Virus record (IMG/VR): IMGVR_UViG_2872158770_000005
Source of the DNA: a virus
Lineage: Duplodnaviria > Heunggongvirae > Uroviricota > Caudoviricetes
DNA length: 15,879 bases
Strand: one strand, 5' to 3'
Below, piece by piece: positions 8,317-9,359 of this stretch (position 1 is the first letter of the stretch; each line of letters starts with the position of its first letter). A program made the translations under genes and the position numbers. Under the pieces are notes generated by a model. The model saw only the letters and a list, made by a program, of their open reading frames with translations. It made no database searches and was not told where the DNA came from.

Positions 8317-8817
8317 ATGAAAAGAAAATCATTGTCAGACACCGACCTCAACGCCGCCAGAAGACTGAAAGAAATCTGGATGGCAAAGAAATCTCAGTTG
8401 GGATTGACTCAGGAACGTGCGGCGGAAATTATGGGGTTTTCAACACAAGGGGCGGTAAGTCACTACCTAAATGGTCAAACCCCACTAAACCTTGAGGCTG
8501 TTCTAAAGTTTGCTGGCTTACTGAAAGTTCCCCCTGAGTCAATCAGGCCAGACATGGTAGATTTGCTGCAAATTGCAAGGATGTATTGTCGAGAACCACA
8601 GCAAGATAACATAGTCGCATTACCAGCAGACACAGAACAAACAGAGGATGAACTACCGTTTGCCGTAGAGCCGATGGAACGAGATTTAATCCATACGTTC
8701 AGAGCTTTTCCGAAAGAAGATCAAGAACACATGCTTCAGGAGATGAAAGATAAAAAAGAATCAATGGATCGTACGGTTGCGCGGTGGTTAGCTGCACAAA
8801 AAGGCCGTCGCGCCTAA
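8317..8817 (+). CDS. CI-type HTH (XRE family) prophage repressor, RacR/PaaR2-like; no recognisable S24 peptidase domain
   Basis: HTH LGLTQERAAEIMGFSTQGAVSHYLNG; divergent from the Cro-like gene; first gene of the repressor-antitoxin-toxin unit. Start set to ATG 8317 (MKRKSLSDT...) rather than the longer track ORF. Confidence 0.8.
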   Translation: MKRKSLSDTDLNAARRLKEIWMAKKSQLGLTQERAAEIMGFSTQGAVSHYLNGQTPLNLEAVLKFAGLLKVPPESIRPDMVDLLQIARMYCREPQQDNIVALPADTEQTEDELPFAVEPMERDLIHTFRAFPKEDQEHMLQEMKDKKESMDRTVARWLAAQKGRRA

Positions 8818-8836
8818 ATCAGAGGAGATATGTAAA

Positions 8837-9031
8837 ATGAGTACAGTCCTTTCCCCAATGGTTTCAGAATTTGAGACAGTTGAGCAAGAAAATAGTTACA
8901 ACGAATGGCTGCGGGCCAAAGTAGCAGCAAGCCTCGCGGATCCCCGCCCGGCGATTCCGCATGATGAGGTAATGGCGGAAATGGAACAAATTATTGCCCA
9001 AATTGCTGCTGCAACTCACAGAGGTGAATAA
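8837..9031 (+). CDS. Type II antitoxin, PaaA2/ParD-like
   Basis: 64-aa ORF directly upstream of and overlapping (TAATG) a ParE/RelE toxin gene; AGAGGAG SD; sequence matches my recollection of PaaA2. Confidence 0.65.
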   Translation: MSTVLSPMVSEFETVEQENSYNEWLRAKVAASLADPRPAIPHDEVMAEMEQIIAQIAAATHRGE

Positions 9032-9321
9032 TGTTACCCGTTTTATGGCTACCATCTGCTCGTGATGATTTGCGCCAGATCGTAGCCTACATAGCTAAAG
9101 AAAATCCCGCGGCAGCACGCAGAATGAAAATTCGAATTGAAACATCCGTTTTGCCGCTCACAGAGCATCCTTACCTGTATCCTCCAAGCGAGCGAGTTCT
9201 TGGTCTTCGTGAAATTGTAACTCATCCTAACTACATCATCCTTTACCGAGTAACAGCATCAAGCATAGAAGTAGTAAATATTGTGCATTCTCGAAGACAG
9301 TATCCAGGCAAAAACAGTTAA
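9031..9321 (+). CDS. Type II toxin, ParE/RelE superfamily (ParE2-like)
   Basis: 96-aa ORF with the typical ParE/RelE pattern (DDLRQIVAYIAKENPAAARR...LREIV...YIILYRV...IEVVNIVHSRR); GAGGTGA SD; translationally coupled to the antitoxin. Confidence 0.85.
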   Translation: MLPVLWLPSARDDLRQIVAYIAKENPAAARRMKIRIETSVLPLTEHPYLYPPSERVLGLREIVTHPNYIILYRVTASSIEVVNIVHSRRQYPGKNS

Positions 9322-9338
9322 TTATTCCCGCCGACAGA

Positions 9339-9359
9339 ACCACCTTAGGGTGGTTTTTT
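9339..9359 (+). terminator. Rho-independent terminator ending the repressor-antitoxin-toxin unit
   Basis: Perfect 6-bp stem ACCACC/GGTGGT with 4-nt loop TTAG, followed by a T6 run, 18 nt after the toxin stop. Confidence 0.7.

Follow-up and report, generated by a model that had tools for sequence, protein, structure and literature searches.

The 15,879-nucleotide stretch of caudoviricete DNA in IMG/VR record IMGVR_UViG_2872158770_000005 (hereafter, the window) is probably a defective lambdoid prophage, riddled with insertion sequences (ISs), whose host is Shigella sonnei. At positions 8,317 to 9,359 it carries genes for a CI-type repressor, a PaaA-family antitoxin and a ParE toxin. We consider it likely that these three genes form the lysogenic transcript of a lambdoid immunity region, in which paaA–parE, co-expressed with the repressor, stabilizes that region by addiction. 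The three-component PaaR–PaaA–ParE unit, its position equivalent to cI/rexAB and its lack of a self-cleavage domain have been described before: paaR2–paaA2–parE2 of prophage CP-933P corresponds to cI/rexAB in a lambdoid immunity region, and its repressor is without an S24 peptidase domain (PMC8630535, PMC9986795). What is new here is modest. Judged from its sequence, the window appears to represent a third immunity type of this family, in which a λ CI-like N-terminal domain is joined to a PaaR-type C-terminal domain and is accompanied by its own predicted operators.

An earlier note on this DNA, made from the letters alone, had described three co-directional open reading frames (ORFs) resembling the PaaR2–PaaA2–ParE2 cassette of E. 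coli O157. All three are present on the plus strand at the coordinates it gave (Table 1), encoding 166 amino acids (from ATG 8317), 64 amino acids and 96 amino acids. The repressor gene comes first in the operon, at the cI position and divergent from ydaS–ydaT. It is separated from the antitoxin gene by a gap of 19 nt, with a GAGGAG Shine–Dalgarno sequence before the antitoxin gene, and the antitoxin stop and the toxin start overlap in TAATG. The identities proposed for the antitoxin and the toxin were borne out by the family and structure searches. PaaA matched the Pfam family PaaA2 (PF21217; E 3e-23, 81.9 bits, cut-off 27), the NCBIfam equivalog NF050103 (94.3 bits, cut-off 50) and the solved PaaA2 (PDB 3zbe; E 1.4e-23); the Pfam search found no helix-turn-helix (HTH) or ribbon-helix-helix family in its 64 residues. 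ParE matched Pfam ParE_toxin (PF05016; E 1.8e-17, 64.1 bits, cut-off 23) over 89 of the 89 profile positions, and its residues 1–93 matched the solved O157 ParE2 (PDB 5cw7; E 6.7e-37). These two cargo proteins matched the PaaA2 and ParE families only and have no homology to RexA or RexB. Purifying selection acts on each of the three genes, with ratios of non-synonymous to synonymous substitution (dN/dS) of 0.05–0.14 against diverged homologues; the ratios are rough because synonymous sites are near saturation.

The N-terminal half of the repressor is of the λ CI type. The protein matched HTH_3 in Pfam (E 8e-9), and in a sequence search of the PDB its residues 2–81 aligned with λ CI residues 3–81, including the N-terminal arm (E 2.9e-9). 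AlphaFold2, given 35 homologues, placed five helices in this domain (predicted local distance difference test score, pLDDT, 85–93), and the top Foldseek match of the resulting model was the N-terminal domain of λ CI (target-normalized template-modelling score 0.83–0.93, 34–40% identity), in agreement with the CI-type assignment of the earlier note. The remainder of the protein is different. The model leaves residues 92–112 as a disordered linker, and a short helix at residues 119–129 and a longer one at 133–165 (33 residues; pLDDT 81–92) make the C-terminal part, of 48 residues, all-helical in the prediction. Pfam gave HTH families only, with no Peptidase_S24 match at E <= 0.1, so the absence of a recognizable self-cleavage domain, which the earlier note had also reported, stands. 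In alignments, the C-terminal part carries the PaaR signature F-x-AFP...KKESM...ARW-x-AAQK-x-RRA, with near-invariant columns that include F128, A130, F131, P132, W157, Q161 and K162, and most of the identity to PaaR-type regulators falls in the final ~47 residues (FRAFPKEDQEHMLQEMKDKKESMDRTVARWLAAQKGRRA). The N-terminal HTH, by contrast, is not homologous to the N-terminal domains of PaaR1 or PaaR2. Neither sequence nor Foldseek fold searches returned a PDB match beyond residue ~90 and, because these searches gave nothing for the C-terminal domain, its putative role in oligomerization is taken only from the reported octamerization of PaaR2 (PMC8630535). An alternative start at GTG 8287, which would give 176 amino acids, was rejected: homologues and λ CI align from ATG 8317.

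The regulatory signals around the unit are those of a λ-like immunity region. The 15-bp motif AATAGY-N3-RCTATT gave 14 strand-matches in the window where 4.2 were expected, a number that no shuffle out of 200 attained. Three sites lie between the divergent genes and a further pair lies just past the terminator. A promoter scan placed a PRM-like promoter among the upstream sites; its −10 hexamer ends 7 nt before ATG 8317, so that a transcription start 7–8 nt downstream would coincide with the ATG. Because of this spacing, and because no Shine–Dalgarno sequence was read upstream of 8317, a leaderless repressor mRNA is plausible, and we infer a leaderless start at 8317 by analogy with the paaR2 and λ cI mRNAs, which are leaderless by experiment (PMC8630535). 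The operator at 8290 has the most mismatches and lies inside the PRM spacer; that at 8267 is the best site and abuts the −35 hexamer. In this arrangement, the two resemble λ OR3 and OR2, respectively. On the other side of the cargo, a putative PL-like promoter, read by eye from the sequence, overlaps the OL-like pair and would read into ydfA and the early-left genes; in CP-933P, PL with three OL sites has been established by experiment (PMC8630535). The cargo thus sits between the repressor gene and the OL-like pair, the rexAB-equivalent position named in the earlier note. Its claim that the unit closes with a terminator was upheld by folding: 11 bases past the last stop, a hairpin (stem 9336–9344/9349–9357, loop UUAG; −15.1 kcal/mol, z = −2.7 against shuffles) precedes a U-tract. 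A consensus terminator scan did not list this site, apparently because a G-U/A-U extension of the stem consumes the T-run.

Table 1 Positions of the repressor–paaA–parE unit, its control sites and other features of the window
Feature	Position	Strand	Description
Immunity repressor gene	8317..8817	+	CI-type N-terminal HTH ~1–90, disordered linker about 92–118, PaaR/DicA-type helical C-terminal domain ~119–166, no S24
paaA antitoxin gene	8837..9031	+	64 amino acids, without DNA-binding domain; Pfam PaaA2, NF050103, 3zbe
parE toxin gene	9031..9321	+	96 amino acids; start overlaps paaA stop; Pfam ParE_toxin, 5cw7
OR-like operator cluster	8242-8256, 8267-8281, 8290-8304		three 15-bp AATAGY-N3-RCTATT sites between divergent genes
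PRM-like promoter	8281..8309	+	TTCAAA-17-TAGAAT, promoter scan
Intrinsic terminator of the repressor–paaA–parE transcript	9333..9362	+	9-bp stem, 4-nt loop, U-tract
OL-like operator pair	9378-9392, 9405-9419	+	same 15-bp motif, just past terminator
PL-like promoter (putative)	TTTACA 9391-9396; TGcTATTGT 9413-9421 (region 9378..9421)	+	overlaps OL pair; would read into ydfA and early-left genes
ydaS/cro-like HTH gene	7942..8205	-	87 amino acids from ATG 8205; divergent from repressor; HTH_3 E 5e-4; PHROG 35 E 8e-17
ydaT-like gene (λ cII functional analogue)	7520..7945	-	Pfam YdaT_toxin E 5e-9; PHROG 163 'CII-like transcriptional activator' E 3e-40
YdaT operator	7935..7952		TTGATT-N6-AATCAA at ydaS/ydaT junction; PRE-like control site; only exact match in window
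IS1	1-754
IS1	10264-11031		target duplication CAACCGTTT (9 bp, intact)
IS1	~12278-13043		target duplication TTTCCGGTT (9 bp, intact)
IS3-family element (orfA/orfB)	~14680-15879		truncates exonuclease gene

To place the unit within its family, we compared it with the two paaR–paaA–parE copies of E. coli O157, which are independent and do not cross-neutralize (PMC4803016). A back-translated ParE2, used as query against complete E. coli genomes, located the CP-933P-type locus (L004), in which ParE matches the PDB ParE2 at 92 of 92 residues and the 123-amino-acid regulator starts with MQKKE, the experimentally determined N terminus of PaaR2 (PMC8630535). The other O157:H7 copy (L003; strain ATCC 43894 at 1.254 Mb) is presumably the paaR1–paaA1–parE1 paralogue of PMC4803016, a name we assign because O157 genomes hold only two copies. 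Identity to L003 and L004, respectively, was 82% and 65% for ParE, 77% and 66% for PaaA, 34% and 24% for the repressor (global alignment), 81% and 77% for YdaT, and 28% and 25% for YdaS; the low values for YdaS are expected because the immunity type differs. The resemblance to PaaR2–PaaA2–ParE2 put forward in the earlier note therefore holds for family, gene order and context, but it is the other O157 copy that the toxin–antitoxin (TA) pair resembles more closely, and the likeness of the repressor to PaaR is limited to its final ~47 residues. Specificity elements that differ within conserved flanks are, by sequence, a classical trait of heteroimmune lambdoid phages.

The likeness to CP-933P/Sp12 paaR2–paaA2–parE2 (E. 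coli O157:H7; Hallez 2010; Jurenas 2021; structures 3ZBE for PaaA2, 5CW7 and 5CZE for ParE2) extends from the gene order and the antitoxin/toxin overlap to the position between the ydaS–ydaT operon and OL/PL, the S24-less repressor with the same C-terminal domain, the leaderless-compatible promoter geometry and the flanking ydaT, o-like, ydfA, dicB and exonuclease genes. An inverted repeat identical to the YdaT operator of the window is, at the same position, the footprinted OM site of CP-933P YdaT (PMC9986795). Unlike the 123-residue PaaR2, however, the repressor of the window has 166 residues and a λ CI-like N-terminal domain, and its operators are of the form AATAG-N5-CTATT instead of the GTTTAGTAA-type repeats of CP-933P. 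L003 has the closest TA pair of a characterized family, including the PaaA C-terminal tail MAEME..IAQIA, in the same context and with the same repressor C-terminal domain; it differs in carrying another HTH type at the repressor N terminus and in having no AATAG-N5-CTATT operators.

Compared with λ cI–rexA–rexB, the unit shares a homologous N-terminal repressor domain (34–40% identity), three OR sites between divergent promoters with the weakest over PRM, cargo within the repressor transcript that is followed by a terminator, and OL beyond that cargo. In contrast to λ, the repressor has no S24 autocleavage/oligomerization domain, YdaS and YdaT serve as the analogues of Cro and CII, and the cargo is a type II TA pair that is equivalent to rexAB in position only. 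A further likeness is to DicA of the Qin prophage of E. coli K-12: residues 106–162 of the repressor match DicA residues 74–130 (NCBIfam NF007257, E 7e-8), at a sub-threshold 32 bits (cut-off 101). The dicA gene occupies the same position near ydfA–ydfC–dicB, although its product differs in the N-terminal domain. To our knowledge, DicA-type neighbourhoods have no paaA–parE directly downstream.

Comparison of relatives separated the contributions of the two repressor domains. AATAG-N5-CTATT sites were present upstream of the repressor (one to three sites, each with at most one mismatch) and again, as two sites, downstream of the cargo in all eight loci that encode a CI-like N-terminal domain (the window, L001, L002 and L006–L010), and the motif was absent from all six loci with PaaR1- or PaaR2-type N-terminal domains (L003, L004, L005 and L011–L013). 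The operator therefore goes with the N-terminal domain, irrespective of C-terminal domain and cargo. Repressors of this family are thus modular, with an exchangeable DNA-binding domain and operators and a conserved C-terminal domain. The cargo also varies, and in the loci compared it always lies between the repressor gene and OL, the rexAB slot. L006–L008 combine a two-HTH repressor with HipA_2 and DUF3037, a PADLOC candidate pair PDC-M66A/B (E 1.7e-13 and 5e-19; L006:3001-5360). In Salmonella, repressors with a CI-like N-terminal domain and another C terminus precede HigB–HigA (L009–L010; L009:3001-4339), and PaaR1-like repressors with the PaaR C-terminal domain precede an ORF of unknown function of 112–120 amino acids (L011–L013; L011:3001-3915).

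The two-HTH relatives suggest how the repressor may have arisen. These proteins of 240–255 amino acids, found in metagenome and Logan assemblies (P0013-P0023, for example L006:3001-3735), consist of a CI-like HTH, a PaaR1-like HTH and the PaaR C-terminal domain, and the 166-residue repressor aligns to them minus the second HTH (~80 residues). From this alignment it looks like a deletion derivative of the 244-residue two-HTH repressors; if true, such a route would change immunity yet keep the oligomerization domain.

The repressor itself is 99–100% identical in S. sonnei and 75–90% identical in E. coli and E. albertii. This species distribution is taken from a protein search; a contig scan found no relative among GTDB species representatives. 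A paaA–parE relative is present in 842 of 5,426 complete E. coli genomes, among which the allele of the window is rare (two records at >=99% identity). The same order of genes (o-like, ydaT, ydaS, repressor, paaA, parE, ydfA, ..., dicB, exonuclease) recurs in prophages of E. coli and in one sequenced phage, Escherichia phage Evi (LR597642.1 24917-25192; L005:3001-3276). Evi has a repressor of the PaaR2 type, together with paaA2 and a parE2-like ORF that lacks annotation and whose product is 67% identical to the ParE of the window. The presence of the cassette in Evi shows that it is not confined to cryptic prophages. The YdaS product of the window is identical to an annotated 87-amino-acid protein of L001, the closest E. 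coli prophage.

These data can be combined with what is known of the homologues into a model. The PRM-like promoter would produce a leaderless mRNA for the repressor, which would bind the AATAG-N5-CTATT sites at OR (three) and OL (two) and thereby silence two operons, the divergent ydaS(cro)–ydaT(cII) and the early one read leftward; the YdaT site at the ydaS/ydaT junction would provide a PRE-like input for establishment. In CP-933P, PaaR2 is a CI analogue that binds OR and OL, represses PR and PL, controls ydaST and, at a low level, activates PRM, with YdaS and YdaT as the Cro and CII analogues; PaaR2/YdaS switching is bistable, and the prophage does not respond to mitomycin C (PMC8630535). 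In lysogens, the repressor transcript would also supply paaA–parE from the slot that holds rexAB in λ. PaaA, a small protein without a DNA-binding domain that is predicted to be protease-labile and mostly disordered, would wrap and neutralize ParE, as PaaA2, a substrate of ClpAP and ClpXP, neutralizes ParE2 (PMC8630535). Free ParE, with its RelE/ParE fold, would join the nucleoid and lead to DNA damage and the SOS response, in line with the toxicity, nucleoid association and SOS induction reported for free ParE2 (PMC8630535). The PaaA–ParE complex might add to repression, as its counterpart contributes partial repression (PMC4803016). Loss or replacement of the immunity region would then free ParE and kill or arrest the cell; the cassette would act as an addiction module because the supply of antitoxin depends on the immunity operon. 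Consistent with this idea, the paaR2–paaA2–parE2 locus stabilizes an unstable plasmid and has been proposed to guard against replacement of the immunity region (PMC8630535).

Several points weigh against this model. ParE2 activity was undetected in both transcriptional states of CP-933P, and this ParE subgroup has no established molecular target (PMC8630535); the addiction role itself comes only from plasmid-stabilization assays. Because ParE is only 65% identical to ParE2 and the DNA-binding domain in the repressor is unrelated to PaaR2's, details of regulation such as PRM activation, octamerization and looping may differ. In the window, a PR promoter for ydaS could not be placed confidently, either by eye or by the promoter scan, which found only the PRM-like site.

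The HTH protein could instead be a dedicated regulator of an autonomous three-component TA module (a 'split antitoxin') and not the repressor of the prophage. This is how paaR–paaA–parE was originally described (Hallez 2010, according to the account in PMC4803016), and the C-terminal domain is indeed common to the repressors of three TA-bearing immunity types. Such a regulator would not be expected to have operators at OL, past the terminator, where they would control the early-left operon, or to share its N-terminal domain and operators with loci that carry unrelated cargo. PaaR-type C-terminal domains also occur without paaA–parE (L011–L013 and the DicA match), and PaaR2 controls ydaST and PL by experiment (PMC8630535); we find this reading very improbable. 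We attach equally little probability to the cassette being an inert remnant of a decaying prophage, with genes intact by chance and unexpressed or non-functional. Decay is indeed suggested by the density of ISs (three copies of IS1 plus an IS3-family element within 15.9 kb) and by the truncation of the Rha-like and exonuclease genes. However, all three ORFs are full length, with promoter, operators and terminator intact, and the dN/dS values are low. An E. coli prophage with diverged flanks encodes the very same PaaA and ParE and a repressor that matches at 165 of 166 residues (99.4%), and loss of the antitoxin gene with retention of the toxin would be counter-selected.

A different function for the cargo deserves somewhat more weight. 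PaaA–ParE might be a RexAB-like exclusion or abortive-infection system, in which ParE would be released when an infecting phage stops host transcription or degrades PaaA. The pair lies where λ has rexAB, with the repressor gene on one side and OL on the other; the same slot in relatives holds the PDC-M66A/B candidate defence pair or HigBA; and the window also has a prophage-borne restriction–modification system, so that defence genes are among the cargo of the element. Against this, positional analogy is no evidence of function, PADLOC has no model for PaaA, ParE or the repressor and returned no match for them, our literature search gave no anti-phage test of PaaA–ParE, and the published phenotype is addiction and stabilization (PMC8630535). 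We judge exclusion as the role of PaaA–ParE to be quite unlikely. We also regard as unlikely a broader version, suggested by the varied cargo, in which the stretch from the repressor gene to OL in YdaS/YdaT-type lambdoid prophages would be a dedicated, PRM-driven slot that swaps TA and defence cargo independently of immunity, and PaaA–ParE would act there in RexAB-like abortive infection and not only in addiction. On its own, the cassette matters little; together, the related prophages form a comparative set for asking whether TA pairs in this slot stabilize the immunity region or exclude phages. The cassette may help to explain the persistence of an IS-riddled remnant in S. sonnei.

The IS load of the window fits a defective prophage of the Shigella type. 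The third IS1 cuts an Ash/Rha-family gene (ORF 11524–12297) ~29 codons before its stop and is bounded by a 9-bp target duplication, which confirms that the antirepressor-like gene is disrupted, as the earlier note had said. This candidate antirepressor gene sits in the PL operon and is predicted to be under repressor control. The requirement for an antirepressor in induction was an inference of that note and is not one of our results. No exact LexA box was found in the window, where the count of sites equalled chance; an SOS-controlled antirepressor in this DNA is thus unsupported. Within the 5′ part of the Ash/Rha ORF, Rfam searches at gathering level identified an isrK Hfq-binding RNA (11559–11635, 61 bits) and a C4 antisense RNA (11661–11748, 77 bits), both on the plus strand. 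We take this arrangement to resemble the P1 immI-like or Gifsy-1 isrK-type antirepressor modules controlled by small RNAs.

The restriction–modification system of the window lies at 906–3817 on the minus strand, beside an IS1, and comprises a PstI/BsuBI-type type II restriction endonuclease (360 amino acids) and an Eco57I/N6-type methyltransferase (610 amino acids), with PADLOC matches to REase_II (E 3e-128) and MTase_II (E 2e-300). Downstream of ydfA, a plus-strand ORF of 125 amino acids (9753–10130; PHROG 33007, E 5e-80), of unknown function, replaces the ydfB–ydfC genes of L001.

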